Assembly: GCA_028282585.1 (NCBI GenBank)
Contig: JANQHR010000046.1
Location: 82,924-114,923, forward strand
From: Bacteroidales bacterium
GTDB lineage: Bacteria; Bacteroidota; Bacteroidia; Bacteroidales; UBA12077
Reading direction: 5' to 3'
Length of the DNA stretch: 32,000 nt
The position numbers were made by a program, and so were the translations under genes. Under the pieces are notes generated by a model that worked only from the letters and a program-made list of their open reading frames with translations, had not been told where the DNA came from and made no database searches. Below are positions 1 through 32,000 of this stretch, one piece after another (the first letter of the stretch is position 1; every line of letters starts with the position of its first letter).

Positions 1-3000
1 TTAGATTGTAATTTTCTTACCAGCTGACATTTCTTCCTCTACCAAACCTACATTCTTAATCATATCGATTAGTACCGCAATTTTTCGAATGGTAGTAGCA
101 ACGAATATATCAGAAATAAGTATTTTAATATCAAAGGTGTTATTTATTTGATTTATAAGAATATTTGCTTTTACGGAATGTCCGCCAAGTTCAAAGAAAT
201 CAGCATCAATACTAATCTTATTATCAGAAATACCTAATATATTGGACCATATTGTAACCAGTTGAGCTTCTAACTCTGTTGTAGGTGGTATATATTCAAT
301 TGTATCTTCAATATTTATCTCTGGCAATGCAGTTTTATCAACCTTTCCATTTTTGTTTAAAGAAATATTTTCAATTTCTTTGAAATACTGAGGAATCATG
401 TACTCAGGAATAACATCTTTTAATTCCTCCTTTATATCATTTGAATCTATTTCATAATCTGTAACATAGTAAGCACATAAATATTGCATGTTTAAATTAT
501 CCGTTTTTACAATTACAATAGCATCTGATATACGATCCAGTGATTTTAAAACAGACTCGATTTCTCCTAATTCAATACGATAACCTCTAATTTTAACCTG
601 AAAATCATTTCTACCGATAAATTCTAAACTGCCATTTGGTAACATTCGAGCTAAATCTCCTGTTTTATATAGTTTTTCATTATCAACAAAAGGATTTTTA
701 ATATAACATGTATTAGTTAATATCAGATTATTCAAATAACCTTCCGTTATACATTCTCCACCTATATATAATTCACCAACCATACCTTTTGGTAAAGGAT
801 TTAAATCCTCATTTAAAATGTAAACTTTAGTATTTGGAAATGGATTACCAATTGGAACATTGGTGTTCTTATCTGTTTCAGTATTATATTTATGGATAAT
901 ACACCCTACAGTAGCCTCAGTTGGGCCATACTCATTAAATATTTCTATCCTATTGGCAAATAAATCAATTATATTATGTGCCAATTGTGTTTCTAGTTGT
1001 TCTCCTCCTATTACTATTGTTTTTACTCTACTCTTATTGATTATATCACTCAAACCTTGATTGTCTCTAATAAGCTTTAAATGTGAAGGCGTTAATTTAA
1101 TTACATCCACTTTATTATCCGATAGTACTTTCTCAATATCCGCTTCTTCGTAAATTACTAATTTACTACCATTTATCAAAGGAGTAAAAATTGATGTGAT
1201 GGTTAAATCAAAAGTCAATGATGTATATAACGGGAAATTAGATTCCTTTTGTTTACAATAAAACTTATTAGCACTCCAAATGTAATTAACCAAGTTCTTA
1301 TGATTAACCAAAACTCCTTTGGGATTTCCTGTAGTTCCTGATGTATAAATGCAATAAGCGATATTATACGTAAATCCCTCGGGTAAGTTTTCTTTATAGC
1401 TTAAAAGCTTTTCGTTATTTAAATTTTCATAAAAATCATTTATCTCAAAAATCTTTATTTTACTATAACTATCCTTATTAAAAGCAATTCCAGGAATTTC
1501 AATTAACTGCTTTTCTGTAGGGAAACTTCCCTTATTTTCAAGGATTGTTGAAACTACCTGTGCAAAGGTCTTCTCACCTTCTCCAAAAACAACCAAATCA
1601 ACGTTTAAGTTTTTAAGTACTTCATCATAATTACTAGTTGGATAAGGACCTCCTGCGATTAATATCCCTTTATAATATTTCCTAATATTTTCAACTGTTT
1701 CGTTAAAATATAGTTTATAATAAACTAAGGACCTACAACCTACAATATCCGGTTTGAATTCTTCAATTATTTCTTGCAATTCAGAATGACTATCAAAATC
1801 AACCCGTGATTTTATAATTTTACAATTAACTTTATTATTAAATTCTTTATTAATGTATGTTGCCAGATACATTAAGCCCAATGGAGGCTCAATTACATCA
1901 TAAATATCCTGAGAATCTTTTGAAAAATATAATGATAAATCTATTAAAAGTATTTTAAGTCTATCATTGGATTTAACATCATGTGAAAAATGAGCTTTAA
2001 TTTTTGAGTTTAAGTCAATTGTTTTATTACTTTCAGAATTATTCTCATCTAATTCTATTTCATCTTTAAGTCCTATAAAATTCAATAATTCTTCAAATGT
2101 GCTAATATTAACAGGTAGATAACTGTTATATTTTTGAACTAATTCATCTTTCGTTAATACCTTTAATTGATATGGCAATACTTTTTTAAGTCTCTCTTTA
2201 GAAAGAAAGTATTCATTAAGAAATATTGATTGATACTTTTTTGTAAATGATTCATTAAACGGCAAAGTTAAAGGTAATGCATGATGAGGAAGATGTTCTG
2301 ACATTGAAATAGATTTCTCAGAAATACCATTTTCCAATGCCATTTTATGCATATCTGTATTTTTATAAATCTTTAAAATATTGATATAAGGAAAATGTAT
2401 CCATTTAATACTTTGAATAAAATTTAATGTCATTAGAGCTTCCTCTTCTGTTTCAGTTGGGAATCCATGCATTGTCATTAGTTCAATAATAACCTGAGGA
2501 TAGGTTTTACTAATATATTCAAGATTATCTTTTAATTTTTGTAAATCAATATTTTTATTTATAAGCTTTTGTAATCGTGGAGACGCGGTTTCAAGAGCTA
2601 AAGCAAAATTTACAACACCTGCTTTTACCATCAAATCAATGTACTCTTTAGTTAAGATATCTCCTCTTAATCCGTTAGGGAAAAAAAAGTTTACTTTTAA
2701 TCCATTTTCAATAATCAGTTCAAAAAATCGCTTACTGTTTTGAACATTTAAATTAAAAATATCATCAACAAATGAGAATCTTTTAATTCCCATTTTATAG
2801 TAAAGATTAACTTCTTCGAATATATTATCAGCAGATCTAAATACATGCTTTTTAGACCAAACTTTATGACAATATGCACATTTAAAAGGACAACCTCTGG
2901 TTGCTTGAATTGAAATGCTATTTTTCACCATAGCTTGTCCTATATATTGAGTATAATAGTTATAATCAACTAAAGAACGGTTAGGCATAGGTAAAGAATC

Positions 3001-4947
3001 AAATTCTTTAATTGGATCTCTATTTATTGTTTTTACAATATTATCGGTATCAAGAATATTCTGAATTTTTCTCTCTCGAATTATTTTCTTCGAAGCTATA
3101 ATCAATGATAATTGAGAATCAGTTACAATAGTACGAAGTCTTTTTTCAGGTATATCGGTATCCAAGGGTAAATAAACACAGTTTAGTTTAAGTATTCCCA
3201 GTATTGCAACTATTGTATCGATTGATCGTTCCATCATAACACCGACCATCTCACCTTCGTTGATATTTTTATATTTAAGAAATGCAGCAAATTTATCTGA
3301 CACTTCTCCAAGTTCTTTATATGTCAGAGTTTCTTTATGCATTTGCAATGCTATATCGGAAGGAGTTTCTTCTACCTGATTATTAAATAAATCAATAATG
3401 GTCTTATCGTAGGGAAAATACGATTTTGTTCGGTTAAGGTCAAAAACTATCCGTTCTTTTTCTTCAGAAGTAAGCAGATCAACCTGTCCTAAAGTCAACT
3501 CATCATCTCGAACAATCTGATTAGAAAGATTTTTAAAGAAACTCCCAAATCTATCAATAGTATCTGAATTAAATAAATCAGTTGAATATTCAAAGTTTAA
3601 TAAGATTTGGTTACCGTAATCATACACATTTAGTCTTAAATCAAACTTAGAGTGTCCCTTTATATGGTTGTTTATTGTATTATGATCAGATTTTTTAATT
3701 TCAGTTTCTTTGGTATTTTGTAAAGCAAATACAACATCAAATAAGGGATTTCTATTGGTATTTTTTGTTATGGTTAATTTATCTAACAACTCCTCCAGAG
3801 GATACTCTTGGTTTTCAAAGGCTTCCACTGTTAAAGTCTTGATTTCTTTAAGGTAATCTTTAATCTTCTTATTTCCATCCGGGAAACTTCTTAAAGCCAT
3901 TGTATTAACAAACATTCCAACAACTCCCGCAAAATCAACATGAGGTCTGGCTTCATTTGTAGTTCCAATAATAATATCATTTTGTCCGGATATCTTTGAC
4001 AATAGTATCTTAAATGTTGCTAACATTATCATGTATAATGTTAATCCATTTCTTGATATATATGCCTTTACATTTTGAGTTTCACCTATCGATAGTGCAT
4101 AGGAAACCGTAGCTCCTTCGAAATTTATATTCGCGCTGCGAGAATAATCAGTTGGCAGGTCTAATGAAGGTAATTCGCCAGCTAATTTTTGTAACCAATA
4201 TTTCTCACTTTGGAGCTTCTTATCATGTTGCTGTTTACTTTTTCGCCATTCAGAAAAGTCAGTATATTGCAAATTACGTGAAGCCAATTTTTTCCCTTCA
4301 TACAATTTTATAAAATCTTCAGTTAGTATTGAGTGTGATATACCATCGCAAATGATGTGGTGCATATCAATAAACAAAAGTGATCTGTTCGTATTTGTTT
4401 TTATCAAACTACTTCTAACTAATGGAGCTTTATCCATTTCAAAAGGTTTTAATAAAGTATGCTGAATATTATTAATTTCTTCTTCTTGAATATATAACTC
4501 GTTCAAAGTAAAATTGATATTTTCATTAATTATTTGAACTATGGAATCACCCACCATTCTGTAAGATGACCTTAAAATATCGTGATGATTAATCAGAATT
4601 GAAAATAATTCTTCGATTTTATCCTTGTCAAGGCCATCAGGTAATGGAATGAAAAAGGGCATATTATATGCAACATTATTAGATAACTGTTGCAATAAAT
4701 ACATTCTGGTTTGCGGAGAAGTTAATGAATAATATTCCTTTTTTTCACTTTTTTTTATATTAGCAAATGAATTTTGCCTATTATACTTAACTAGAAATTC
4801 AATTAATTCTTTCTTATTATCTCTAATTAATTCTATTAACTCCTTCGTTATTTTTTCCTTATCACCTTTCAGTTTTATTTGATTTTCACTTAATCCAATT
4901 TTAATTCCTTTCTGATTGAGGTGATCTACCAGTTCGAAGATATTCAT
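1..4947 (-). CDS. NRPS, one module: TubC_N-like docking domain - C - A (interrupted by radical-SAM + B12-binding-like didomain) - T
   Basis: 1648-aa ORF with ATG at 4945-4947 and TAA at 1-3. Motifs read in the translation: HHIICDG (C3), LTYKEL (A1), [11 protein letters not shown] (A2), CPFKCAYC (radical SAM), [11 protein letters not shown] (A3), NEYGPTE (A5), YKTGD (A7), [20 protein letters not shown] (A8), LPEYMIP-like IPEYMIP (A9), NGKVDK (A10), FFELGGHS (carrier). Confidence 0.92.
   Translation of the reverse strand: [1648 protein letters not shown]
73..291 (-). other. Peptidyl carrier (T) domain
   Basis: aa ~1553-1625. [15 protein letters not shown]...[15 protein letters not shown], with the phosphopantetheinyl Ser at aa 1591. 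Confidence 0.9.
313..1374 (-). other. Adenylation domain, C-terminal fragment (A3-A10); hand-extracted specificity code DLTKVGEVGK (Asn/Asp-like)
   Basis: aa ~1192-1545 with motifs A3-A10 as listed for the CDS. The code comes from aligning FDLTITS / IKLTPSH / IVIGGEQ / [11 protein letters not shown] / NGKVDK to the GrsA-PheA positions 235-517. It is intermediate between the recalled Asp (DLTKVGHIGK) and Asn (DATKVGEVGK) codes. Confidence 0.8.
1528..1962 (-). other. B12-binding-like (flavodoxin-fold) domain of class-B radical SAM type, located C-terminal to the radical SAM core
   Basis: aa ~996-1140. LKILLIDLS...[15 protein letters not shown]...[18 protein letters not shown]...[19 protein letters not shown]...[17 protein letters not shown]...IPGIAFNKD. 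This matches the consensus pattern I recall for the N-terminal cobalamin-binding domain of B12-dependent radical SAM enzymes. Confidence 0.7.
2068..3015 (-). other. Radical SAM core domain nested in the A domain
   Basis: aa ~645-960. [15 protein letters not shown] linker-like motif, [14 protein letters not shown] (CX3CX2C; Cys codons at nt 2869-2892, verified on DNA), [38 protein letters not shown]. Confidence 0.85.
2437..2472. repeat. 36-nt dispersed repeat, copy A (35/36 identical to 31532-31567)
   Basis: agcttcctcttctgtttcAgttgggaatccatgcat here versus agcttcctcttctgtttcGgttgggaatccatgcat in the other copy. It encodes [12 protein letters not shown] in both nested radical SAM domains. Confidence 0.9.
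3082..3420 (-). other. Adenylation domain, N-terminal fragment (core motifs A1-A2)
   Basis: aa ~510-622. [17 protein letters not shown] (A1) and [22 protein letters not shown] (A2). The A-domain sequence then stops and resumes about 570 aa later at A3. Confidence 0.85.
3448..4746 (-). other. Condensation (C) domain
   Basis: aa ~68-500. [12 protein letters not shown] (C1-like), HHDILRSSY (C2-like), HHIICDG at nt 4342-4362 (verified on DNA), [51 protein letters not shown]. Confidence 0.9.
4783..4947 (-). other. N-terminal docking domain, TubC_N-like
   Basis: aa 1-55, [52 protein letters not shown]. The pattern is a short helix, then G-I-x-I/L 'x-G-x-L-x-L-x-x' hairpin, then a K/E-rich helix ending EL-I-x-F-L, as in TubC-type N-terminal docking domains. 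It sits directly before the C domain. Confidence 0.6.
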
Positions 4948-5103: not shown

Positions 5104-8100
5104 TTAAATAATAATTTCAACTTCCTCATTAACTTCATCGTCTTCTTCAATATTTTGGAGTAATTGAATCAGTTTTGAAATTGTTTTTATGTTAGGGTTT
5201 TCAAAGAAATCTCCAAGTCGGATTTCTATATTGAATTCTTTATATATCATTGAAGTAATTTGAATTGCATTTAAGCTATGTCCTCCAATTTCAAAAAAGT
5301 CGTCGTATATGCCTATTTTATCAAGTGCAAGAACTTCTTCCCAAATTTTAGTTAATTTTTTTTCTACATTGGTTTGTGGTTCGACATAGCTATTACTTTC
5401 AAGCTTAAAGTCTTTTAAATTTGCCAACTGCCTCCTGTCAGCCTTTCCATTTGTATTTAATGGTATTTTATCCAGTTGAATAAAAAAAGTTGGAACCATG
5501 TAAGCTGGTAATTTTTTTGAGATTTCCGATATAATAACACTGGTGTCTATTTTATTTTTATTCGATACAGTATAAGCCACCAGTTTTTTATTTCCCGAGT
5601 TATCATCTATTGCTATTACAACACTTTCTTTAATATCATCCAATTGATTAAGTACCGATTCTATTTCTCCCAGTTCAACTCTAAATCCTCGTATTTTTAT
5701 TTGATCATCTATTCTACCCAAAAATTCTATATCGCCACTTGGAAGCCATCTTGCTATGTCGCCAGTTTTATAAATTCTAACTGCATCCTTAGGGTTATCT
5801 TTTTCAGAATAAATTTTACCACGTTCTTTATTCCATATTATAAATTTATCTTTTGTCAGAGAATTATTCTGATAATACCCTCGTGCTAAACCGACACCAC
5901 CTATATGTAATTCTCCGGGGATACCAACAGGTTGTAATTTGTGGTTATTATTTAAAATAAAAAGATTAATATTATCAATAGGTTTACCGATTGGAATTGT
6001 ATCTACTTTTTCATCCCTGGTGCAATTATAATATGAAACGTCAACTGTCGCCTCGGTAGGACCATAAAGGTTTACTAAATTAACTTTTAAGTTTTTAAAT
6101 AATTCATTAAAAAATAAAACACTATTTGCCGATAAGGCTTCACCACTAGCAAATACCTGTATTAAACTTTTTAGATTGTCTACGTCTACATTATGATCCT
6201 TAATATACTGTAAAAAAACATTTAACATAGAAGGCACAAAATGTATTTTTGTTACTTCTTTTTTAGTTATTGTCTCAATTATTCTATTTGGATCTTTTTC
6301 TTCATTTTTGTCTAATAAAACCAATGATGCCCCATAAAAACTCCACCAAAATAGTTCCCATACTGAAACATCAAAACCTATTGAAGTCTTTTGAATCAAA
6401 ATATCCGTTGGAGAAGCATTATATTTTTTTTGCATCCAGTTAATTCTGTTTATTACAGAATGATGTTCTATCATAACTCCTTTAGGTTTTCCTGTAGAAC
6501 CCGATGTATAAATAACATATGCTATATTGTTGGAGTTAGCCTGATTAAATTCTTTTAATCCAGGTTTTTCATAAGAAAAACTATCTATGAATATCAAATC
6601 TGTACCCGTTTCTTCGAACTTATCCTTTAAATGAATTTTTGTTATAACAAGGTTACATCCACTATCTGATAGCATTATTGATATTCTTTCATCAGGATAA
6701 TCTGGAATAATAGGTAAATAAGCAGCTCCTGACTTTAAGATTCCATAAATACAGATCATCATTTCTATTGATCTATCCATACTAACTCCTACTAGCTTTT
6801 CAGGCCCAATTCCACAATGTCGAAGATATTCTGCTAATTCATTTGCTTTAGCATTTAATTCTTTATATGTTATTCTTTCATCTTTATAGATTAAAGCAAT
6901 CTTATTAGGAGTTTTTAAAACCTGCTCTTCAAATAAATAATGGATACATTTCTCTTTAGGATAATTAACTTTTGTATTGTTGAAATTACCTAAAATCTGA
7001 CCCTTTTCTTCTTTTGTCAATATATCCAGTTCATTTATAATAATATCTTTATTCTCAACTACACTTGTAACTATCTTGTTAAAATGCTTTAATATTCTTT
7101 TAACCGTATCTCTATAAAATAAATCGGTATCGTAAATTATAGAAAGTTTTATTTCATTATTATTATGATGAAATATGAAATCCAAATCAAATGTACTTTT
7201 TATATTATTGCTGCTGTTTTTAAAAGGTTTCAAACTTAAATGATTGCTATTACTTGTTTCATTTTCATAAACAAAATCTCGATCACTATTATATAATACA
7301 ATTACATCAAAAAATGCAGATCCTACCGAATTTCTTTCTGTAGATAATTCCTCAACTAATTTACTAAATGGATATTCCTGGTGATTATATGCTTCTTGAG
7401 TATTATCTCTAACACTATTTAAAAATTGCTCAAAAGTTTTATTTCGATCAACTTTATTTCTTAAAGTCAACATATTTACATAATATCCAATTTGATCTCT
7501 TAAATTATAATTTTGTCTACCTGATACAGGAGTTCCAATTATTATATCATTTTGGTCTGTATATTTATAAAGTAATATTTTCACTAATGAAAGTAGTGTC
7601 ATAAATGGAGTAGAATAATTGCTTTTACTGATATCAAGTAAACTATCCACCTGGTATTTGGATAGAGTCAGGCTTACAAGATCTGCTCCATGTGATTTGC
7701 TTTTTGTCCTACTTTTATCGGTTGGAATATTTAAAGATGGCAGTTTACCTCCAAGTATTTTATGCCAATATTCTTTGTGTTTTCTATAAATATCCGAGTT
7801 TACTATATTATTTTGCCAGGCACTGTAATCTTTATACTGAATTGTTAATGGTTCAACTAGTACTTTTTCATTATTTATTCGAGAATTGTATAGATTTAAT
7901 GCATCTTTACCAAATACATACATTGACCATCCATCGCTTATAATGTGATGCATTGCGTAAACAAAGACATATTTCTTTTCTTCAATCTTAATCAGATAGC
8001 TTCTTAACAAAGGTCCTTTGTATAAATCAAATCTTTTTGTTTTAGCTTCTTTTATTAATTCATTTACTTTCTTTTCTGTAGAAGCTTCTTTACTAAAGTC

Positions 8101-11100
8101 ATATTCCTCTATCTCAAAATCAATAGAAGTTAATACCTTTTGTTTAAATTGTCCATCCTTTTTTGCGAATACCGTTCTAAATGATTCATGTCTGTTAATT
8201 AACATATTAAATACATTTCCAAAAACACCAGCGTCAACTTCTCCTTCCAAGATAAAAGAGTTAGATATTATGTACCCATAATTATTCTTAGATAATTCAT
8301 CAATTAAAAGTAGTTGCTTTTGCGAATATGATACTTCGTAATACTCCTGATGCTGTACTTTCGGAATAACATTTCTATTGTAATTTAACTGATTTGTTGA
8401 ATCAGTTGAATTATCTATTAATTCATTTAGTTTATCGATATCAATTCTATTAAAATCGATGCAATCAATAAGTTTTATTTTATATTCATTACCAGTATAA
8501 GAAGGATCATTATAAAGCATTTTTTGAAGATTCCTAATAAATGGTTCTACTGACAATAAAGAAACAAACTCTTCAGCTTTAATTTTTGCAATACTTGACT
8601 GCTTTTCATAAACTTCTTTGCTATAATATAAATCTTTTAATGCCTTTATCCAAGGTTCTATTTCTTGTTCAGGAACTATTGCTTGTGGTAAAGAATTTTC
8701 GTTAAACTCATTCTTATATTCTTTAATATGATTAATAGGTATCAGGTAATCCGTTTCTAATTTTGCTTCTATTAATCCTCCATGCTGACTAGCTAAAACA
8801 GGAATTCCCCTTAACATAGCATCAGTACAGGCCATACCAAATCCTTCAGCCCATAATGTTGGCATTAATAATATCTTTACATTAGCCAAGAGTTCATTTA
8901 AACTCTCTTTATTTTCCATTATTGTAATGTTAGGCACCTCATTCATCAACCTCATATCTGTTGGCGTAGTACCCCAACCCGGAACAATTGCGAATTTAAT
9001 TTCAGGTAATAATTTTGCTAAAGTCAATAGTATTTTAATTCCTTTTACATCACACGGATTAAACATAAAAACATATTCATTATCAAAGGAAGCTAACTTT
9101 GGAAAAATGTCATTTCCAAAATGAGGCGGATGGTTTACAAAAGTACTGAATCCAGTATGTGTTTTAACATAATTAGAAACATACTCACTAATTGTTACAA
9201 TCTGAGTTGATTTACCTATTAATTCGGTTCGCTTTTTTCCAGGGTAAAGACTTTCAGGCCCGAATGGAAGTAATTGGGGAGTATGAGCTAAATATATTAT
9301 ATTATCGGATCTAACCTCATGAATAGCTTTTAACAGTTGTTGAGATGGATCTTCTGCAGAAATAAATATCCAATCGGGTTGAAATTCTTTAATTATCTTT
9401 TGAAGTTCTACTTTTAAATCATCAGTTTCTAAAATTGCATGTACTTCAACATTCTTTATATTAAAAACATACTTTTTATCATAAACATCAACGGTTATTC
9501 CATCATCTTTTAAGCTTTCCAATAATTCCTGGCTCGTAATATCACTAGGAACAGCTAGTGCAGGTGTAACAACTTTTACATTATGACCAAGTTGTGCAAT
9601 TTCTTCTACCAAATATTTATTTGATTTATTAGCGCCTCCAAATACTCTTGTATAAGGTAGATTCATAGTTAAAATCAAATCAAGTTTAATATTAGGTGCT
9701 ACATCTATCTTCTGTAGAATTTCCTTAATATTTGCAATATCAGATTGCTCTATTTTTCTTCTTAATATCAGTTTCCCAAAATCTTGAATTGTTGTTTTTG
9801 AAAATAGAACTACAAAATCAATATCTGTTGAGAATTCATGATTTATCCTTGATAATAATTTTATTGCTAGTAAACTGTTTCCACCTAAATCAAAAAAGTT
9901 TGAGTTAATACTAATTTCATCAACTTCAATATTTAAAACTTCGGCCCAAATAGATGCTAATTGTTTTTCAGTCTTATTACGAGGAGCAATATAGTTATTG
10001 TTAATACCTGCACGTGGTTCCGGTAATTTTTCTTTATCAACTTTTCCGTTAATTGTCAAAGGTAAATTATCAATAATGACAAAAAATGATGGGATCATGT
10101 ATTCTGGAAGCTTTCTTTTTAAAAACTCCCTAAGAATATCATTCAGCTCTGATATTTTATTATCATGGAGTATAATATATGCGCACAGATATTTTTCACC
10201 AGAGTCACTTAATTTATCCACAACAATTGTATCTTTAATCAAATCATGTTTTAGAAGATTCTTTTCAATCTCACCTAATTCAATACGATACCCTCTTATT
10301 TTTATCTGGTTATCAATCCTTTCAACGAATTCTAAGTTTCCATCTGATTTAAAAAAGGCCTTATCTCCGGTTTTATATAAAATATGGTTATTGGAAGTAT
10401 TAATAAATTTTTCAGATGTAAGTTCAACTCTGTTCAAGTATCCTTCGGCAAGGCAGTTTCCTCCAATATAAATTTCACCTGGGATTTCTTTAGGAATAAC
10501 ATTAAATTTATTATCGAATAAATAAATATTAGAATTTGATATTGGTTTTCCAATAGGAACATTTTCGGCATAGTCATCTTCAATTTTGTATTCATAAATC
10601 ATACATCCAACCGTTGCTTCAGTTGGACCATATTCGTTATATATTTGTACAGATCTCTGAAATGCCTTTGATACAATTCTGCAGTCTTTACTTTTAAGCT
10701 GATCTCCACCAATAATCAGTTTCCTAACATTTGAGTTTTTAAGATTATATTCATCTAATATTTTTAAGTGAGCTGGTGTTAACTTTACGATATTTATATC
10801 CTTATTATCAAATATTCTGCTAAAAGTTTCAGGAATATCTGTCGAATCATAAATAATAATTTTACCACCGGTTAAAAGTGGAACATAAATAGAGGTTTTG
10901 GTTAAGTCAAAGGATATGGATGAATATAATGGAAAATTAAAATTACCATCTATGTTATATATGTCCGAAGCCCAATTTATATAATTAGCAATACTTTCAT
11001 GATTAACAATTACTCCTTTTGGATTTCCAGTTGAACCGGAAGTATAAATTATGTATGCGCTTTTATAATTCTTGTTTGATATATCAAAACTCTGACCATT

Positions 11101-12300
11101 TGAAAATATATTATCATTTTTTATACTAACTATATTATAATCATGATTCCATTCCTCTACATATTTAAGATCTGTTATTAAATTGTTAACATTTCCATCC
11201 TTCATCATAAATTCGATACGTAACTTAGATAAGTTGGTATCAATAGGCATATAGCAAGCACCTGTTTTTAAAACTCCCAGAATGCTTATAATAAGCTCAA
11301 TTGAATTATCTAGCATAATTCCTACTATCGAATTTTCTCCAACACCTTGCATTATTAAATAATTTGCTATAGCATTTGATTTAATATTTAATTCCTTATA
11401 AGATAGCTGTTCTTCATTATATTCAACAGCAGCATTATCTGGAGTTTCCAAACATTGTCTGACAAATAATTCACAAATAGAATTATTTAAGTAATCCTTC
11501 TTAGCAGTATCATTAAATTTATTTACTAACTCTTCTTTTTCTTCCGATGATATTAGTGAGAAAGAATTTATTGGATTTTCTAAGTTACTTATAACAGATT
11601 TGAAAAATCCTTTATAATATTTTACTAAATTTTTTATTAACTCTTCAGAGTAAAGACATGAGTTGTATTTTACTTTTCCTTTAAATATTTTACTTTCTTT
11701 TTCAAATGAAAATGAAAAGAGTATGTTGTAATTAATTTCGTTAAGATATCCTTCTTTTTGAATATTTTCATATAATATACCAATATCAAATAAAGGAAAG
11801 CTTTCATTCTTTTTTAAGTTTAATCCCATCTTTTGAACAAGTGCATCAACTGGGTAATTTTGATTTCTAATAACATTAACTAAATTGTCCTTTGTACTTA
11901 GAATAATATCCTTAAAACTTTTCTCCCCATTCACTTGATTTCTAACACATAAAACAGTGTTAAGAAATTCATCCTCAACCTTTTGTTCATGAATTGATGT
12001 ACCTATACTGATATCCTCAGATTGTACATATTTAGATAAAAACGCACTTATTCCGGCAATTAATAATACCTGAATTTTAAAATCCTGTTCTTTACTGATG
12101 TCAAGTATTTTCAATGTAAGGTCTTCATCAAATTTGAACTTATACTCCTGCTTTTCGATCTCTTTATTTATCAAAGAATCTTTACTATATGGAATTATTG
12201 TTTTCTCTTCAAAACCTTTTAAATAATCCAACCAGTACTTTTCTTCGTTATATCCTATATTGTTCAGATATAATATTTTATCAGTTTTACTATTACCCAT
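5104..12300 (-). CDS. NRPS, two modules with an embedded glycosyltransferase: truncated C - A - T - GT - C - A - T
   Basis: 2398-aa ORF with ATG at 12298-12300 (verified) and stop at 5104-5106. It contains two full A-domain motif sets, two carrier motifs ([16 protein letters not shown]), one HHIISDG, and a GT-B-like block with [22 protein letters not shown]. Confidence 0.92.
   Translation of the reverse strand: [2398 protein letters not shown]
5176..5388 (-). other. Peptidyl carrier (T) domain followed by an acidic C-terminal tail
   Basis: aa ~2305-2375. [13 protein letters not shown]...[14 protein letters not shown], with Ser at aa 2342. The tail, aa 2376-2398, reads ...[19 protein letters not shown]. 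Confidence 0.9.
5431..6969 (-). other. Adenylation domain; hand-extracted code DVWHFSLVDK (Ser)
   Basis: aa ~1778-2290. [101 protein letters not shown]. The code is identical to the Ser code I recall for EntF. Confidence 0.85.
7021..8367 (-). other. Condensation (C) domain
   Basis: aa ~1312-1760. [35 protein letters not shown] (nt 7930-7950, verified), [41 protein letters not shown]. Confidence 0.9.
8521..9693 (-). other. GT-B fold glycosyltransferase domain (GT4/Glycos_transf_1-like) embedded between T and C
   Basis: aa ~870-1260. N-lobe: [39 protein letters not shown]. C-lobe: [24 protein letters not shown]...[39 protein letters not shown]. The EX7E-type motif is present as E1152-x7-D1160 (nt 8821-8847, verified on DNA). 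Confidence 0.75.
9766..9987 (-). other. Peptidyl carrier (T) domain
   Basis: aa ~772-845. [14 protein letters not shown]...[14 protein letters not shown], with Ser at aa 809. Confidence 0.9.
10006..11499 (-). other. Adenylation domain; hand-extracted code DLTKIGEVGK (Asn/Asp-like)
   Basis: aa ~268-765. [85 protein letters not shown]. Confidence 0.88.
11551..12300 (-). other. Truncated condensation domain (C-terminal lobe only, no HHxxxDG)
   Basis: aa 1-250. [10 protein letters not shown] (YWxxxLxG-type motif), [56 protein letters not shown], then the C-A linker [15 protein letters not shown]. The protein starts about 20 aa before the YW motif, so the whole N-lobe including the catalytic His motif is absent. 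Confidence 0.75.
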
Positions 12301-12392: not shown

Positions 12393-13721
12393 TTAAAAAT
12401 TAAATGAAGAATCATTTATATCGGAAATATTTGTAATTACCTCTTTTTTAGTATTATTCTTGATAACCTCCATACCATCTTTATCAAAAGTATTGACACA
12501 AAAAGAAAAATCTTTAAATCTGGTAATCCTGAATGTATTATCATCATGCCTTTCTTCCTCTACTTCATCAGAATAACTTCTTGCTCCAAGAACCTCATTT
12601 AGTACATTCCATCTACGCGCAATTTCTCCATCCTCCACTTTATTACTGAATCCTGTTGAAGTAGCACCATTTACATCGCTGTACCCAAAGTGTTTAACTT
12701 TATTAAAACACTTATCTTTTTTAAAAAATTCGGTTAACTCATTAAAAATTTCAATAGTTTCTCCTGGGAAGCCTACCATAATATCTGCAACCATATGCAT
12801 TTTAGGATTATCAAATTTTATTTCCTGAATTGTATCGTATAACTTGGTTAAGTTAATAGGTCTTCCCATGCGGTCCAGGATGTGCTCATTAACGTGTTGC
12901 AGCCCTATATGCAATTCATTTATCCATCCTTTTTTACATAAATCCTTTATTTCAGTTGAGTACTTCTCTAACCATCTAATATGTAAATAACTAAAATAAA
13001 GATTTGCCAATGGAACAGCATTTTTTATTTCATGAACTAGTTCTATTATTGTTTTGTTGCTATCGATTCCATAGGCAAAAGCATCTTCTCCCATTAAATA
13101 TATTTTATCGTAACCTTTTTCAACTCCGGTTTTTACTTCTTTAATTATATCTTCAACAGGTCTACTGTTTATATATCCTTTTGCTTTATTTATAATGCAG
13201 AATGTACACTCTCTTAGACATCCTTCAGAGATTTTTATATAATATACAGGAATTTTTTCTGGAGGTGTTAGGTTATACTTGTTAAAAACATTGACATATT
13301 TAACATCCTTAAATTCTACTTTCGCTCCAATTATCCTGTCAAGAATTTCCTCTTCATGTATGCCAATAATTTCTCCCCCAAATTGTTCTTTTAGTTTTTC
13401 TGACTGTGTCTTTGGCAAACATGCCATAACAATTATATTCTTTTCAGGAAAATTAACTTCTCTTGCAGCTTCTAGTATTTTAATAAACTTCTCATACATC
13501 AAATCATGGAATCCACAACCGCAAATAATAATTTTATCTACATTTAAATCATCACATACCTTCCACCCGTTAGTTCTAAAATATTTTTCAACCGTAGCAT
13601 AATAAGAAGTGTGTCTTTCGCAATGGACATTATTAGTAACTATAGCTACTCTTTTATCTAATAATAAATTATTCATAATAAGAGTTATTAAATTATTTAA
13701 GGGATTACTGTAAATGTTCAC
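12393..13721 (-). CDS. Radical SAM methylthiotransferase-family protein (RimO/MiaB-like)
   Basis: 442-aa ORF. The GTG at 13719-13721 overlaps the upstream TAG by 1 nt. An alternative ATG at 13674-13676 (MNNLLLDKR...) is at least as plausible. Radical SAM motif: YIKISEGCLRECTFCII (compare E. coli RimO YLKISEGCNHRCTFCII, from memory). The N-terminal UPF0004-like domain has three spaced Cys (NNVHCERH, IICGCGFHD, IVMACLPK; spacing ~35 and ~33 aa). Also MVGFPGETIEIF and ARRWNVLNEV. Confidence 0.75.
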   Translation of the reverse strand: MNIYSNPLNNLITLIMNNLLLDKRVAIVTNNVHCERHTSYYATVEKYFRTNGWKVCDDLNVDKIIICGCGFHDLMYEKFIKILEAAREVNFPEKNIIVMACLPKTQSEKLKEQFGGEIIGIHEEEILDRIIGAKVEFKDVKYVNVFNKYNLTPPEKIPVYYIKISEGCLRECTFCIINKAKGYINSRPVEDIIKEVKTGVEKGYDKIYLMGEDAFAYGIDSNKTIIELVHEIKNAVPLANLYFSYLHIRWLEKYSTEIKDLCKKGWINELHIGLQHVNEHILDRMGRPINLTKLYDTIQEIKFDNPKMHMVADIMVGFPGETIEIFNELTEFFKKDKCFNKVKHFGYSDVNGATSTGFSNKVEDGEIARRWNVLNEVLGARSYSDEVEEERHDDNTFRITRFKDFSFCVNTFDKDGMEVIKNNTKKEVITNISDINDSSFNF

Positions 13722-23888: not shown

Positions 23889-25034
23889 TTATTTAGTATT
23901 GTAATAATACTTTCTGAGTGCGTAACTGGATATTATGTTTTTTTGTATTTGTGATGTTCCTTCAATTATCTCCAATACCTTAGCTTCTCTAAATAACCTT
24001 TCAACAGGGTATTCTGAATAACATCCATTTCCTCCATGAACTTGTACAGCATCAATAGCAACATTCATTGCAATTTTTGAGGAAAAATATTTTGCAATTG
24101 TAGTTTTTATTACAGCTTCATGACCTTTATTCATTCTATTATTTGCAGCTTCAATACATAAGGCTCTTGCTGCATGGATATTTGTAGTAGCATCAGCAAT
24201 CATTCCCTGAATATGTTGAAAGGTATGTATACCTTTCCCAAATTGATTTCTATTTCTTGAATATTTCACCATTGCATCTAACGCTTCCTGTGCAATAGCA
24301 ACACCCGCCCAAGCAATACTATATCTTCCATTATCAAGCGCAGTATTAACAACAAATGAAAAGCCGCATCCTTCTTTGCTTAACAAATTCTCACGAGGTA
24401 TTTCTACATTTTTAAATTCAATTTCTGATATATGTGAAGCTTTATTAGCTAATAAACCTTTTATTGGCTTAACTTCTATCCCCTCATAATTGCGTTCAAC
24501 AATAAAAGTAGATATTCCTTTTTCTCCTCTTGCTACAACTATGAAGAAATCAGCAATTTCAGCAAAACTTATCCATTTTTTCTTTCCATTTAGAATATAT
24601 CCGGAATTAGAATCTGAATATGAACACTGAATATTTTTTGCATCCGTACCTACATTTGGTTCAGTTAAAGCAAAAGCCCCAATCTTCTCTCCTGTTGACA
24701 TCATTGGTAACCATCTCATCTTTTGTTCAATACTCCCCCATTTTAGCAAAGTTTCAGCAACTAAAGAGGTATTAACAGTTATTAATCCACGCGTATTACA
24801 ACATGCTTTACCAATTTCTTCCGTAAACAATCCATAATGAAGTGAATCTAGCTCAAGGCCACCAAAATCTCTTGGTATACTTGCAGTTAAGTATCCATTT
24901 TTAGCTAAATTAGTAATTAAATCATTTGGCAGTTTTTCCTCGTTTTCAAAAATAGTAGCAAAAGGCCTTATCTTTTTTTGAGCAAATTCTTTTACTTCTT
25001 CAATAACAGTATTTTGATCTATCAAATTATTCAT
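23889..25034 (-). CDS. Acyl-CoA/acyl-ACP dehydrogenase family flavoprotein (FkbI-like)
   Basis: The ORF track gives 389 aa from a TTG at 25056-25058. I prefer the ATG at 25032-25034 (MNNLIDQ...), preceded by AAAGAGG. ACAD-like motifs: GAFALTEPNVGTDA, WISFA, VQVHGGNGC, EAKVLEIIEGTSQIQKNII. Confidence 0.85.
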   Translation of the reverse strand: MNNLIDQNTVIEEVKEFAQKKIRPFATIFENEEKLPNDLITNLAKNGYLTASIPRDFGGLELDSLHYGLFTEEIGKACCNTRGLITVNTSLVAETLLKWGSIEQKMRWLPMMSTGEKIGAFALTEPNVGTDAKNIQCSYSDSNSGYILNGKKKWISFAEIADFFIVVARGEKGISTFIVERNYEGIEVKPIKGLLANKASHISEIEFKNVEIPRENLLSKEGCGFSFVVNTALDNGRYSIAWAGVAIAQEALDAMVKYSRNRNQFGKGIHTFQHIQGMIADATTNIHAARALCIEAANNRMNKGHEAVIKTTIAKYFSSKIAMNVAIDAVQVHGGNGCYSEYPVERLFREAKVLEIIEGTSQIQKNIISSYALRKYYYNTK

Positions 25035-25045
25035 TGCCTCTTTAG

Positions 25046-28030: not shown

Positions 28031-31000
28031 TTAATTATTCAAAAAGCTATTTTTCATAAAATCTTTTCCTTCTTCTAAAGTTTCGAAATTATTCACAGTA
28101 GTATTTTCTTCACTCTGTTCAGATTCCAAATGATCTGTTAATCCTTTTATAGTGGTATACGTAAATAAGGTTGTAATAGGAATTTCTTTGTCGAGTAACT
28201 CGTTTAGTTTAGTATTCACTAAAATTAAACTTAAAGAGCTTCCTCCGAGATCAAAGAAATTATCATTTACACCTATTCTATTTAGTTTTAAAACTTCTTT
28301 CCAAATTGCTTCAACCGACTTCTCCATTTTGCTTTCAGGTGCAACATATGTTGTCCCTGTCATGGCCCTATCTTTTTGCGGTGCAGGAAGTGATTTAAAG
28401 TCAATTTTACCACTAATTGTCAACGGAATAGAAGGAATCTCTGTGAAATATGAAGGTACCATATATTCAGGTAATGATTCTAATAGAAATTCTCTTAAGG
28501 TATTTGAATTAACATTTTCTGAAAAACCATTCACCGGAATGAAATAAGCTGCAATATATTTCTCATCATCTCTAATATTTACTTTTTCGCTCACCCCCAG
28601 CCTTCTTAAAAAGTTACCATATGCCTTTTCGGAGACCTTACAATTTAAATCTTCTTCAACGTTCTCAAGGGATAAGTGATCTAGTCTTTTTTCCCAACTT
28701 GTTGCTGAACCATAATAATGAAATCCATGATCTTTCATAAAACCATAATCTCCAATTTCTTTTATAGCACAGTTTGTTGAATAAACTGCAAAGTCTTTTT
28801 TCTTTTTCCAGTATGAGTCTTGTTTATTTAAATAGGTTATTAAATCCTCATTTTTAATATCACAAAACCTATAAAAATCCAGAAACCTCACTTTATCATG
28901 TATTCTACCGTCCGTTACTACATCTATATCAACTAAGTCAAATATTTTACTATCAATCTTTGGAGTATTCTTTTGCATATTTAATATTTCCTTTTCAATT
29001 AACTGATTATCCATATTTTCAGATTTCATGAAAATATTAAGTTTGTTTTCAATTATTTGACCCCTTGAAAGTGTAGCTCCAATAACAACTTTAATATCGT
29101 GTTTGTAAGCATACTCAGCAGCAAGCGAACTTGATACATGAAAACATCCCCTACATACAGTCGAAAAGGATTTCATACTTTCTTTAAGTATAATATCAGA
29201 TATATCGTGCTTTAAAATGATATTTTCAACACCCAACGATGATGTTACATATTTTATATTCTTAATATCTGATTTAGAAAAGTAACCATTGTCATATGTT
29301 AAAGTTAATACCTTCAAACCCATTTTAACCAGTTGATATAAAGCATAACCTGCTCCCCGTCCTCCTGCATAAAGTAAAATACAATCATATTTACTTTCTT
29401 TATCTTTATTTTGCTCTTTTACAAAAGTTTGAAGATCATCTAAAGATTTAAAATATTCATTAATGACTTTACTATTTTTTTCCAAGGAATTACACTGGTT
29501 ACAGATATTACTGTCATCTATCTTAATCTCTGGATAAGTAGAATTAATTCCGCATTTTTTACAATATTTTAATTCCGGTTTATCATCCTTTGGCGACCTA
29601 ACCATTAAAACACAGTCCTTAATATTCTGATGTTTTTGTAAAGCATTCTTTATTTCTCCAAGTTCAATTCTATATCCTCTAACCTTAACCTGTTCGTCTT
29701 TTCTTCCTTTAATTTCAATATTCCCATCTATTAACCTTCTACCAATATCTCCGGTTTTATAAAGTTTCCCTTCTCCAAATGGATTATCAATAAATACTTC
29801 ATTTGTTTTTTTCCAATTATTAATATATCCTCTTGCAATACTATCTCCTGCTATACAAATCTCACCATAATAACCAAGTGGTTTTTGTTGTAAATCGTCC
29901 GAAAGAATATATACTTGATTATTTGCAACATTATTGCCAATAGGAATTATTTCTCGAGTATCATCTTTCTTTAAAGGATAAAATGTATTATTAATAGTAC
30001 CTTCTGTTGGACCATAAGTATTAACAACCCTACCTTCCAAATAATTATGGAAATTTCTAACAACATTGGCAGCAACAGGTTCAGCTCCTATAAACAGGAG
30101 TGGTATTTTAATTTTAATATCATTTTCATAGGAATCTAAAATATGGGTAATAGCAGTAAACATAGATGCTGTGCAGTACATCTTTGTAATTTCAGTAGCT
30201 TTTGACAGAAGTTTTATTAAATGGTTAGCATCTTTACTTATTATGTCATTAATGACTTTTACTTTAGCACCTTTGTACAATGGCCAAAATACTTCGAAAA
30301 CTGACGGATCGAATGTAAGATTTGTACGTTGTGCCATTACATCAGTTTCTAACATCCCAAATTCCTTATCCATCCAGAATACACAATTATTTACTTGTTT
30401 GTGTTCCACCATTACACCTTTTGGCACTCCTGTTGATCCTGATGTGTACATAACAAAAGCCAAATCACTACCATTGGTGGGTATATCCAAATTCGAAGAT
30501 GGTTTATCTTTTAATTGATCAACCATTTGATCAATAATTATAATATTCCTGGTATCCAGCACATTTTTTTGTAATATTTTTTTATATACAATTCCATTTA
30601 TAGACTCTAGTTGCCTAGTATCAGGAATATTAAAGTCATTCTTAAAAAATTCCTTAAGTAATTCTTCAAAAGTATATTCTCCTTCACCAAGTACAGCTAA
30701 ATCAACATTTTCATCTTTTAGAATAGTATCGTAATCACTTGATGCATACGGCCCACCTACAATTAATGGAACCTTTATTCCCCAATTTCTAATAATAGAA
30801 ACTGTTTGGTGAAAAAAGTCTCTGTAAAAAGTCAAAGTTCTTATTCCAATTAGATCTGGATTAAACTCTTTTACCAAGGTTTGCAACTCCTGGTAATTAT
30901 CAAAATCAACACCTGCCTTATATATAAGCCCATCGATCTTATCCTTGAATTTCTTTTTAAGATATGTCAATAAGTATACTAAACCAATAGGTTGTTCAAC

Positions 31001-32000
31001 AACCTTATATAGCATACTGTGACTACTGAAGTGCTGAGATAAATCTAATAGCAGTATTCTTTTTTGATTTTGTTTTTTTTCGCTTGCTGTATTACCTGAA
31101 CTGTTAAAAACTATTGGCGCATCAATTTTTATTTTTTGATCGAATTTTAGCTGTGTATTATTTAATCCGGCAAGCTCCATAATATCTTCAACATTATTAA
31201 TTTCAACAGGCAAATAAGCATTATATTTTTGTATAAGGGCCGTTTCATTTAAGACCTTCATCTGTGCCGGAAGTACCTGTTTAAGCCGATCTTTATTAAG
31301 AAAATACTCATTCATAAAATCAGCCTGATACTTTCTTGTAAAAGATTTCGGAAATGGTAAAGTTTCCGGTAGTTCATGAAATGCCCTATCTTTTGAATTC
31401 ATTATATCACTTTTTCGCACTCCATTTTTCAAAGCAAATTCTTCCATTTCTGTATTTGGAAAGATTTTTAGAATATGTATATATGGAAAATGTAACCATT
31501 TAATATCCTTTATAAATTTTAGGGTCATCATAGCTTCCTCTTCTGTTTCGGTTGGGAATCCATGCATGGTTGCCATTTCCAGTATTACATGTGGATGAGT
31601 ATTTGCTATATAGTTTACAACATCACGAAATTTATCAAGGTTTAGGTTCTTTTTTAGTAATTTTTGTAACCTTGGGGAGGCTGTTTCCAATGATAAATTA
31701 ATTCCTCTGGTACCTGCTTCTACCATCAAATCAATATAATCCGGAGTCATGATATCTCCTCTTAAACCATTTGGAAAGAATAACTGAATATCAAGCTTAT
31801 TTTTTACAATATTTTGAAGAAGCGCGCCACTTTCTCGTAAATTCAAATTAAAACAATCATCAATAACAGCAAAGTTCCGAACACCTTTTTTATAAAAAGA
31901 TTTTATTTCCTCGAAAATATTATCACCACTTCTATGGACATGGTGTTTAGACCAAATTTTATGACAATAAAGACATTTATACGGGCACCCCCGTGTTGTT
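28031..32000 (-). CDS. NRPS, 5'-truncated by the window edge: ...A(A1-A2 outside window) - radical SAM - B12-binding-like - A(A3-A8) - Zn-ribbon/PP-loop-like domain - A(A9-A10) - T
   Basis: The ORF track starts at a TTG (31846), but the frame stays open to nt 32000. My hand translation of 31847-31999 gives TTRGCPYKCLYCHKIWSKHHVHRSGDNIFEEIKSFYKKGVRNFAVIDDCFN, colinear with aa 683-733 of the 1-4947 protein. The stop is at 28031-28033. Confidence 0.9.
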   Translation of the reverse strand, partial: TTRGCPYKCLYCHKIWSKHHVHRSGDNIFEEIKSFYKKGVRNFAVIDDCFNLNLRESGALLQNIVKNKLDIQLFFPNGLRGDIMTPDYIDLMVEAGTRGINLSLETASPRLQKLLKKNLNLDKFRDVVNYIANTHPHVILEMATMHGFPTETEEEAMMTLKFIKDIKWLHFPYIHILKIFPNTEMEEFALKNGVRKSDIMNSKDRAFHELPETLPFPKSFTRKYQADFMNEYFLNKDRLKQVLPAQMKVLNETALIQKYNAYLPVEINNVEDIMELAGLNNTQLKFDQKIKIDAPIVFNSSGNTASEKKQNQKRILLLDLSQHFSSHSMLYKVVEQPIGLVYLLTYLKKKFKDKIDGLIYKAGVDFDNYQELQTLVKEFNPDLIGIRTLTFYRDFFHQTVSIIRNWGIKVPLIVGGPYASSDYDTILKDENVDLAVLGEGEYTFEELLKEFFKNDFNIPDTRQLESINGIVYKKILQKNVLDTRNIIIIDQMVDQLKDKPSSNLDIPTNGSDLAFVMYTSGSTGVPKGVMVEHKQVNNCVFWMDKEFGMLETDVMAQRTNLTFDPSVFEVFWPLYKGAKVKVINDIISKDANHLIKLLSKATEITKMYCTASMFTAITHILDSYENDIKIKIPLLFIGAEPVAANVVRNFHNYLEGRVVNTYGPTEGTINNTFYPLKKDDTREIIPIGNNVANNQVYILSDDLQQKPLGYYGEICIAGDSIARGYINNWKKTNEVFIDNPFGEGKLYKTGDIGRRLIDGNIEIKGRKDEQVKVRGYRIELGEIKNALQKHQNIKDCVLMVRSPKDDKPELKYCKKCGINSTYPEIKIDDSNICNQCNSLEKNSKVINEYFKSLDDLQTFVKEQNKDKESKYDCILLYAGGRGAGYALYQLVKMGLKVLTLTYDNGYFSKSDIKNIKYVTSSLGVENIILKHDISDIILKESMKSFSTVCRGCFHVSSSLAAEYAYKHDIKVVIGATLSRGQIIENKLNIFMKSENMDNQLIEKEILNMQKNTPKIDSKIFDLVDIDVVTDGRIHDKVRFLDFYRFCDIKNEDLITYLNKQDSYWKKKKDFAVYSTNCAIKEIGDYGFMKDHGFHYYGSATSWEKRLDHLSLENVEEDLNCKVSEKAYGNFLRRLGVSEKVNIRDDEKYIAAYFIPVNGFSENVNSNTLREFLLESLPEYMVPSYFTEIPSIPLTISGKIDFKSLPAPQKDRAMTGTTYVAPESKMEKSVEAIWKEVLKLNRIGVNDNFFDLGGSSLSLILVNTKLNELLDKEIPITTLFTYTTIKGLTDHLESEQSEENTTVNNFETLEEGKDFMKNSFLNN
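28127..28354 (-). other. Peptidyl carrier (T) domain
   Basis: Track aa ~1165-1240. MEKSVEAIWKEVLK...FFDLGGSSLSLILV, with Ser at aa 1204. Confidence 0.88.
28367..28570 (-). other. Adenylation domain segment A9-A10
   Basis: Track aa ~1093-1160. EKYIAAYFIP, LPEYMVP (A9), PLTISGKIDFKSLP (A10, Lys517 equivalent present). Confidence 0.85.
28571..29584 (-). other. Zinc-ribbon + PP-loop-like adenine-nucleotide-alpha-hydrolase-type domain (WbpG/N-acetyl-sugar-amidotransferase-like) inserted between A8 and A9
   Basis: Track aa ~755-1092. YCKKC...(16 aa)...ICNQC (nt 29492-29563), then KYDCILLYAGGRGAGYALYQLVKMGLKVLTLTYDNGYFS. AGGRGAG (nt 29348-29368, verified) occupies the SGGxDS PP-loop position. Further downstream are STVCRGCFHV and LGVENII. 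The layout matches the CxxC..CxxC + YDCI-x-x-SGGKDS + 'vDnGw' pattern I recall for this family. Confidence 0.55.
29603..30484 (-). other. Adenylation domain segment A3-A8; hand-extracted code DPFYFGTINK (no match to any code I can recall)
   Basis: Track aa ~455-748. YTSGSTGVPKG (A3), TFDPSVFE (A4), NTYGPTEGTIN (A5), GEICIAGDSIARGY (A6), YKTGD (A7), GRKDEQVKVRGYRIELGEIK (A8). Confidence 0.85.
30647..31063 (-). other. B12-binding-like domain (paralogue of 1528-1962)
   Basis: Track aa ~262-400. KRILLLDLS...EQPIGLVYLLTYLKK...ELQTLVKEFNPDLIGIRT...VPLIVGGPYASSDYDTIL...VDLAVLGEGEYTFEELL...INGIVYKK. Confidence 0.7.
31172..32000 (-). other. Radical SAM core domain (paralogue of 2068-3015), partial at the window edge
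   Basis: CPYKCLYC, with Cys codons at 31985-31987, 31973-31975 and 31964-31966 (verified). AVIDDCFNL, LETASPRLQKLLKKNL, MHGFPTETEEEA. By eye, roughly 60% identical to the other copy across the aligned block I compared. Confidence 0.85.
31532..31567. repeat. 36-nt dispersed repeat, copy B (35/36 identical to 2437-2472)
   Basis: See copy A. The coordinates were counted directly on the sequence lines. Confidence 0.9.

Follow-up and report, generated by a model that had tools for sequence, protein, structure and literature searches.

What does a radical enzyme do inside the adenylation domain of a peptide synthetase, and how does it come to fit there? The question is raised by a 32,000-nucleotide stretch of DNA from a Bacteroidales bacterium (assembly GCA_028282585.1, contig JANQHR010000046.1, positions 82,924 to 114,923; hereafter the window). 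Its gene at 1-4947 encodes a nonribosomal peptide synthetase (NRPS) whose adenylation (A) domain is split by a foreign segment, here called X, uniting a radical S-adenosylmethionine (SAM) core with a cobalamin (B12)-binding-type fold. X is almost certainly a real and conserved in-line domain of the class B radical SAM type. That it carries out on-line, cobalamin-dependent radical C-methylation of a carrier-bound residue, probably at C-beta, is a reading that we hold with moderate confidence.

The gene lies on the minus strand, which the preliminary description of this locus had left unstated, and is laid out as follows; motifs were placed by back-translation.

1..4947, minus strand: NRPS gene, 1648 amino acids (aa), one uninterrupted open reading frame (ORF) with its stop codon at 1-3; order TubC_N dock, condensation (C) domain, A (A1, A2), X (radical SAM, B12), A (A3-A10), thiolation (T) domain
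4792..4941, minus strand: TubC_N-type N-terminal docking domain, aa 3-52 (Pfam PF18563, E 7.7e-8, 32.8 bits, cutoff 26)
3448..4740, minus strand: C domain, aa 70-500 (Pfam PF00668, E 1.5e-107)
3043..3405, minus strand: A-domain N-terminal piece, aa 515-635, with the A1 and A2 motifs; packs with the C-terminal piece in the AlphaFold2 (AF2) model
3310-3327, minus strand: A1 motif LTYKEL, aa 541-546
3160-3192, minus strand: A2 motif LKLNCVYLPLD, aa 586-596
1480..3042, minus strand: insert X, 521 aa, aa 636-1156, with radical SAM barrel, helical region and B12-type Rossmann domain (homology extent, AF2)
2416..2907, minus strand: Radical_SAM core, aa 681-844 (Pfam PF04055, E 5.2e-23, 82.5 bits, cutoff 29.5)
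2869-2892, minus strand: CX3CX2C [4Fe-4S] motif CPFKCAYC (C686, C690, C693), aa 686-693
aa 726-731, minus strand: radical-SAM-like block FVDDIF
aa 786-795, minus strand: radical-SAM-like block ETASPRLQKL
1555..1890, minus strand: B12-binding Rossmann domain, aa 1020-1131 (Pfam PF02310, E 4e-12, 46.5 bits, cutoff 32.1)
1633-1653 and 1573-1584, minus strand: invariant GGP and GEGE, respectively, within the B12-binding domain (homologue alignment)
313..1479, minus strand: A-domain C-terminal piece, aa 1157-1545, from A3 to A10 NGKVDK (motifs, Pfam AMP-binding and AMP-binding_C)
aa 1201-1211, minus strand: A3 motif YTSGTTGNPKG
aa 1194-1405: second of the two stretches into which the Pfam AMP-binding match is split, E 5.6e-71
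aa 1462-1535: Pfam AMP-binding_C, E 2.3e-8
76..264, minus strand: T (carrier) domain, aa 1562-1624 (Pfam PF00550, E 2.6e-13)
175-186, minus strand: GGHS motif of the T domain

All the motifs quoted in the preliminary description, A1 and A2 before the insert and A3 with the later core motifs after it, were recovered in the gene. Together with A4-A10 and the carrier GGHS, all intact downstream of X, they confirm an interrupted A domain of the A2/A3 type, in which A1-A2 precede and A3-A10 follow a foreign domain within one ORF. A2 and A3 lie 604 aa apart here; in the uninterrupted A domains of the same window, about 45 aa lie between the post-A2 strand and A3. The A2/A3 site had thus been placed correctly, whereas the extent first given for the insert (1375-3081, about 570 aa, equivalent to aa 623-1191) shrinks to 521 aa (aa 636-1156) once the boundaries are set by the reach of homology to stand-alone relatives of 540-580 aa. 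The Pfam search suggested for the segment returned Radical_SAM and B12-binding, both above cutoff, in accord with the CX3CX2C motif and cobalamin-type region first noticed there.

The host domain appears to tolerate this load. In the AF2 model of aa 505-1550, the predicted local distance difference test (pLDDT) score is 86.3, with 85-97 for the A N-terminal piece and 80-95 for the core after X. The stand-alone A domain ApnA-A1 (4d4i, 4d56) aligns to this model over about 1030 columns (1029 for 4d4i) with a TM score of 0.85 normalised to the target. On this alignment, the two A pieces are predicted to rebuild one canonical A domain with X extruded, the point that the AlphaFold model suggested in the preliminary description was to test.

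GCA_028282785.1 and two independent Logan assemblies made from other runs each contain a 98%-identical gene of 1648 aa in the same uninterrupted frame, and base composition is even along the gene, including across the insert junctions. These assemblies, with the recurrence of the architecture in 32 in-line loci, settle the concern voiced at the outset that one gene might have been mis-assembled or might really be split. Comparison with the 98%-identical orthologue gave ratios of nonsynonymous to synonymous substitution (dN/dS) of 0.14 for X, 0.12 for the docking and C domains, 0.13 for the A C-terminal piece and 0.075 for the small A N-terminal piece. X is under purifying selection and is constrained to the same degree as the other parts of the enzyme.

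The AF2 model of X alone, built with 97 homologues (pLDDT 91.9, predicted TM score 0.91), runs from a beta/alpha barrel through a helical region to a five-stranded Rossmann domain. Foldseek comparison of X with the PDB retrieved radical SAM enzymes only (AprD4, RimO, MgmA, MiaB, TsrM, OxsB, Mmp10, CysS), many of them with a probability of 1.00. The sequence closest to its radical SAM half in the PDB is that of AprD4 (6fd2; hmmsearch E 1.3e-20, Foldseek 5e-12), and in a profile search of PDB sequences the Rossmann half matched the cobalamin domain of the methylase TokK (E 4.6e-8). X also has in common with the cobalamin domain of MgmA a GGP...VDLVV.GEGE signature. The 97 aligned homologues, at about 50% identity, share 34 invariant columns, including CX3CX2C, GGP and GEGE, and their only conserved Cys residues are the three of the cluster motif, so X would have neither an auxiliary cluster nor a Cys hydrogen donor. 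An invariant CX3CX2C, a partial barrel and a PF04055 match above the gathering score place X in the radical SAM superfamily, and a PF02310-type Rossmann domain fused to the radical SAM core places it in class B. A methylthiotransferase or SPASM-type enzyme was considered and rejected: the Cys residues for an auxiliary cluster are absent, and the RimO and MiaB Foldseek matches cover the radical SAM core only.

The order of the two halves, which the preliminary description had missed along with the second X at the other end of the window and the wide spread of the architecture, sets X apart. Its radical SAM domain comes first and its B12 domain last, the reverse of the canonical class B order with an N-terminal B12 domain. 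The NCBIfam models for canonical class B enzymes align to X as two swapped pieces: the B12 part of X matches the N-terminal B12 domain of KedN5-type models, with residues 400-540 of X corresponding, for example, to positions 17-157 of KedN5, and the radical SAM part matches regions further downstream. All relatives at 27-43% identity that have no link to NRPSs run from B12 to radical SAM and align to X as a permutation. On these swapped matches and the order in non-NRPS relatives, sequence comparison identifies X as a circular permutant of a class B radical SAM enzyme. A cut at the linker between the B12 and radical SAM domains would put both new termini at one point, as an insert in the loop of a host domain needs them to be. 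In LCP-89, Elusimicrobia and other metagenome-assembled genomes (MAGs; loci L044, L046, L048, L056 and L066), the nearest canonical-order relatives occur as 5-8 paralogues arranged in tandem, away from NRPS genes; they match no curated NCBIfam family and stand as unclassified class B enzymes.

No NCBIfam curated model reaches its cutoff on X; the best, BchE, scores 108 bits against a cutoff of 481, and the methylase models score likewise (PhpK 92 against 600, KedN5 69 against 700, MJ0865 64 against 360, rSAM_ocin_1 51 against 282). Since these scores fall far short, X lies outside every curated methylase family, be it PhpK, KedN5, MgmA/MJ0865, rSAM_ocin_1, HpnR or the TsrM type. No curated Pfam or NCBIfam family describes it, and public annotations read 'AMP-binding protein', 'radical SAM protein' or 'YgiQ'.

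The architecture is no singularity of this genome. In a word-index search that examined 8000 candidates, 2106 proteins reached E<=1e-5. The top matches are 48-58% identical and of three kinds: those with C and AMP-binding domains, those of 720 aa that consist of an A N-terminal piece and X, and stand-alone proteins of 540-580 aa. An exhaustive search of 1.84 billion representatives at 50% identity returned 1067 proteins at E<=1e-30; 147 of the best 150 of these (>618 bits) have lengths of 1000-7548 aa, and two copies of X occur in several. Among the loci fetched from species-representative genomes, 35 hold a relative at 45-60% identity, and in 32 of these 35 X is in line (C, A N-terminal piece, X, A C-terminal piece, T). 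The hosts of the 35 loci belong to Aminicenantes, Clostridia/Bacillota, Bacteroidales, a Pedobacter MAG, Acidobacteriota, Deferrimicrobium, SAR324, Chloroflexota, Melioribacteraceae, Elusimicrobia, Sulfuricella and Halanaerobiales, and one host of an in-line X, Desulfosediminicola flagellatus IMCC35005 (L027), is in culture. The X family comprises hundreds of 50%-identity clusters in more than 10 phyla, mostly of uncultured anaerobes.

The remaining variants are informative about how the unit is deployed. In L007 (module 3), L016 and L020, X sits between A10 and T. At code position 235, where Asp is usual, the A domains of these three modules have Cys (CVQYIAHVVK); as far as a code can tell, this suggests a Pro-like substrate that lacks a free alpha-amino group. 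Tandem stand-alone X-X proteins lie sandwiched by NRPS genes, with tails that match those of NRPS subunits (..QFNDDLENE, ..YDF); the acidic C-terminal tails common to stand-alone X and NRPS subunits are probably docking tails. An Aminicenantes MAG encodes tandem 724-aa proteins in which an orphan A1-A2 fragment is joined to X, followed by a complete A domain. Another stand-alone X is found in an NRPS-polyketide synthase (PKS) cluster of [Clostridium] polysaccharolyticum. Extra canonical B12-radical SAM genes accompany X modules in at least 10 other loci and match no NCBIfam subfamily. Examples of X outside an intact A domain are:

L005, 7802-12175
L001, 10001-13495 and 19898-21703
L015
L023

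Which residue would X meet? The specificity code of the A domain in the 1-4947 gene is DLTKVGEVGK, which we take to be an Asn code of the Stachelhaus type, and Asn is therefore its predicted substrate. Codes could be read in 33 in-line X modules: Thr in 9, Pro in 7, DPWYxGTxN in 6, Lys-like in 3, Tyr-like in 2, Asn in 2, Gln in 1, Leu in 1 and others in 2. Plain modules within these clusters have the same codes. This diversity, and the presence of identical codes without X, indicate that X is an optional tailoring step aimed at something common to all these residues, at least as far as codes report substrates. X clades also track the specificity code of the A domain, with a Pro clade, a DPWYxGTxN clade and others.

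We therefore envisage the following sequence of events. Spliced into the surface loop between A2 and A3, with its two ends brought together by the permutation, X would leave the split A domain free to fold normally, activate its amino acid (predicted Asn) and load the downstream T domain. The phosphopantetheine arm would then offer the thioester-bound residue to X, whose [4Fe-4S] cluster would cleave SAM reductively to a 5'-deoxyadenosyl radical that takes hydrogen from an unactivated side-chain carbon, most plausibly C-beta. The substrate radical would finally be quenched by the methyl group of methylcobalamin to yield a C-methylated residue, before or after condensation. The identity and fold of X, its permutation, the intact A domain around it, its conservation under purifying selection and its strict association with NRPS modules are features of the data, from which we infer the loading of the cofactors, the substrate, the carbon attacked and the outcome of methylation.

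Several observations speak for this scheme. Judging from the invariant CX3CX2C, GGP and GEGE, the dN/dS of 0.14 and a B12 domain like those of TokK and MgmA, X has probably retained its activity. C-methylation is favoured by that same likeness of the B12 domain, by the precedents of DscE and CysS considered below and by the tandem X-X units (L001, L015, L005), which suggest repeated modification of one residue. The variety of partner residues (Thr, Pro, Lys-, Tyr-, Asn-, Gln- and Leu-like) points to a position shared by all as the site of attack. Because X stays in register with an A-T pair at all three of its positions and its clades track the code, the comparison points to action on the carrier-bound residue of its own module.

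Interrupted A domains are a textbook route for tailoring chemistry within an NRPS module, and Labby et al. are said to have reviewed them in 2015. The A-domain inserts known to us use polar or flavin/NAD chemistry. In the established cases (A-M-A, A-KR-A and A-Ox-A, with methyltransferase, ketoreductase and oxidase inserts; TioS A4-M, 5wmm), a tailoring enzyme likewise occupies a defined loop with the A domain intact. One of the two classic sites (A2/A3; the other is A8/A9) is also the site of X, and, as supposed for X, the insert should work on whatever residue the adjacent T domain carries. The TioS A-M structure 5wmm is among the Foldseek matches to the full model of the A domain with X. 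The established inserts are Rossmann SAM methyltransferases, KRs or flavin oxidases, whereas X is a 521-aa radical enzyme with [4Fe-4S]/SAM and a B12-type domain, and it differs further in its circular permutation, its A10-T position and its free-standing form. We found no paper on an A domain interrupted by a radical SAM enzyme among open-access papers and preprints, in agreement with the preliminary description, and a report in a subscription journal is possible.

With the class B enzymes TokK, TsrM, CysS, MgmA, Fom3 and PoyC, X shares CX3CX2C, a partial TIM (triosephosphate isomerase) barrel and the PF02310 Rossmann domain with GGP and GEGE; it departs from them in its reversed order, in being embedded in a megasynthetase and in reaching the cutoff of no curated subfamily. 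The cobalamin domain of Mmp10 is also C-terminal but of a different, non-PF02310 type. Like the activity proposed for X, those of DscE and CysS tailor nonribosomal peptides with cobalamin and radical SAM; both proteins are free-standing, whereas X resides inside the NRPS polypeptide. DscE is a cobalamin radical SAM C-methyltransferase that acts in trans on released discodermin (PMC12858407, November 2025), and the mere association of an NRPS cluster with a radical SAM methyltransferase is there called 'an unusual enzyme combination'. CysS, from the cystobactamid pathway, works on a pantetheine-tethered substrate, and a crystal structure shows it with such a pantetheinylated molecule (PDB 9n1c).

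Other facts weigh against C-methylation. No curated equivalog model comes near its cutoff on X, and the best, BchE, describes an oxidative cyclase. AprD4, a diol dehydratase rather than a methylase, is the closest solved protein both by sequence and by Foldseek. Its resemblance to X is confined to the radical SAM core; in AprD4 a B12-like domain stands N-terminal, in the canonical order, and the substrate is an aminoglycoside, whereas X is reversed and NRPS-embedded. AprD4 is not known to use cobalamin, nor its B12-like domain to bind any. Cobalamin binding by X is not readable from its sequence, and the tracking of A codes by X clades could reflect the inheritance of whole modules together. 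Class B enzymes are also reported to make thioethers (ThnL) and ortho-tyrosines. The B12-dependent C-methylation first suggested for the insert stands as the most likely chemistry, qualified by the want of a curated family at cutoff and by a closest solved relative that does not methylate.

The alternative that fares best is that X acts in cis as a radical SAM enzyme but brings about a different anaerobic C-H functionalisation of the tethered residue, such as BchE-like hydroxylation or oxidation, AprD4-like dehydration or elimination, desaturation, rearrangement or the formation of C-S or C-C bonds, and we consider it unlikely but worth serious attention. BchE and AprD4 are, after all, the top NCBIfam and PDB matches. 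Most hosts come from lineages of anaerobes (Aminicenantes, Clostridia, Desulfobacterota, Halanaerobiales) in which O2-dependent hydroxylases are presumably unavailable, and beta-hydroxylated Asn, Gln, Leu and Tyr and 3-hydroxy-Pro are common in nonribosomal peptides. Class B chemistry without methylation is reported for ThnL and for ortho-Tyr formation. Yet Thr, the commonest partner (9 of 33), already bears a beta-hydroxyl and would be a poor fit to beta-hydroxylation; the tandem X-X units are easier to understand as repeated methylation; and the B12 domain is strongly conserved and TokK/MgmA-like, while the AprD4 match touches the radical SAM half only.

It is improbable that X is active on a different substrate, be it the upstream peptidyl chain, the free amino acid before activation or the released peptide. 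DscE does methylate released discodermin in vitro (PMC12858407). Stand-alone X proteins exist, and the window cluster, like many others, also encodes separate canonical B12-radical SAM proteins. The strict module register at three insertion points, always beside an A-T pair, and the way in which X clades follow the A-domain code nevertheless point to its own module. Known inserts of interrupted A domains act on the tethered residue of their own module.

A catalytically dead structural or regulatory remnant, comparable to the pseudo-methyltransferase insert of some interrupted A domains, is very unlikely. The orphan A N-terminal piece-X proteins in L005 and L023 do show that the unit is shuffled by recombination, but the cluster Cys residues and 31 other columns are invariant in 97 sequences, the dN/dS is 0.14, and family members from many phyla make up hundreds of 50%-identity clusters. 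A radical L-to-D epimerase of the PoyD/YydG kind, standing in for an epimerisation (E) domain, is harder still to credit. Diverse partner amino acids would fit C-alpha chemistry, but the X modules in L018, L025 and L027 have a canonical E domain of their own (EGHGRE, TVGWFT), which makes epimerisation by X unlikely, and the 97 homologues conserve no Cys hydrogen-atom donor outside the cluster; on these two grounds this candidate was rejected. Radical epimerases, moreover, need no B12 domain. Last, an artefact of assembly or annotation, be it a chimeric contig or separate genes fused by a frameshift, to which the apparently metagenome-derived contig with its low GC content (~29%) might lend colour, is practically excluded by the same 1648-aa ORF in three independent assemblies, 32 further in-line loci, 147 long proteins and even composition over the junctions.

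The genes of the window, all of them minus-strand, make up a single hybrid cluster, whose further members are:

28031->32000, minus strand: NRPS that runs off the window edge; it holds a second X and, between A8 and A9, a WbuX-like PP-loop insert
30575..32000, minus strand: the second X, a paralogue 50% identical to the first, in the A domain of that NRPS, with CPYKCLYC near 31985
23889-28014, minus strand: methoxymalonyl-acyl carrier protein (ACP)-like cassette
13721-23767, minus strand: PKS-NRPS (ketosynthase, acyltransferase, KR, dehydratase)
12393-13721, minus strand: MiaB/RimO-like radical SAM protein
5104-12300, minus strand: NRPS with an embedded GT4 glycosyltransferase

The A domain of the NRPS at 28031-32000 is interrupted twice: X stands at A2/A3, and an insert of ~350-400 aa (~28550-29614) lies between A8 (KVRGYRIELGEI) and A9 (LPEYMVP). 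This second insert starts with CxxC...CxxC and matches the NCBIfam model TIGR03573, WbuX 'N-acetyl sugar amidotransferase', with E 8.7e-28, below cutoff, and QueC/PP-loop weakly. Doubly interrupted modules of this type, with the code DP[WF]Y.GT.N, recur in L028, L029, L031, L032 and L036.

In the 5104-12300 gene, a GT4 domain (8707-9642, minus strand; Pfam Glyco_transf_4, Glycos_transf_1 and Glyco_trans_1_4) separates a T domain from the C domain that follows it, in the order A-T-GT-C-A-T. The protein encoded at 12393-13721 (minus strand), between the PKS-NRPS and NRPS genes, is a stand-alone radical SAM protein with UPF0004 and Radical_SAM domains (TIGR00089, E 1.7e-54, below cutoff), and by its sequence may be a methylthiotransferase-like tailoring enzyme. 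The four genes at 23889-28014 (minus strand), upstream of the PKS-NRPS gene, specify an acyl-CoA dehydrogenase, a SAM methyltransferase, an HAD/FkbH-like protein and a 3-hydroxyacyl-CoA dehydrogenase, a set that we take to resemble a methoxymalonyl-ACP (FkbG-K-type) extender-unit cassette. Just past window position 1, the 98%-identical contig (L087, 14976-17949) has, downstream of the X gene, a canonical-order B12-radical SAM gene (552 aa, unclassified) and that of a 424-aa alpha/beta hydrolase. Subunit borders in X clusters are also unusual: 27 NRPS subunits (5104-12300 of the window; L001, L012, L024, L039 and others) start with the C-terminal half of a C domain (reference residues ~175-431), and the subunits upstream of such starts often end in a full C domain and a tail, an odd subunit interface.

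If the scheme holds, a radical SAM/B12 insert would bring the functionalisation of unactivated C-H bonds onto the assembly line itself. To our knowledge, radical C-H functionalisation of peptides comes mainly from pathways for peptides made on the ribosome and modified after translation (RiPPs; PoyC and others) and, since 2025, from DscE, one trans-acting post-NRPS enzyme. The circular permutation offers a clean natural case of the re-wiring of a two-domain enzyme for insertion into a host loop, which may be useful for NRPS engineering, and the cultured D. flagellatus IMCC35005, with an in-line X, and [Clostridium] polysaccharolyticum, with a stand-alone X, make the question directly testable.

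The recurrence of the architecture marks a large, uncharacterised family rather than a one-off. On balance, and with the evidence about evenly poised, we picture X as an undescribed and widespread class of NRPS tailoring domain and, if so, as the first radical (Fe-S/SAM/cobalamin) enzyme to be an integral part of an assembly line: a permuted class B enzyme, fitted to an A-domain loop, that alkylates or otherwise functionalises unactivated C-H bonds of carrier-bound Thr, Pro, Asn, Gln, Lys, Leu and Tyr while the chain is being assembled, mostly in anaerobes. Tandem and stand-alone forms may serve iterative modification. Since the family is so large and widespread, structure predictions for many cryptic NRPS products probably miss modifications.

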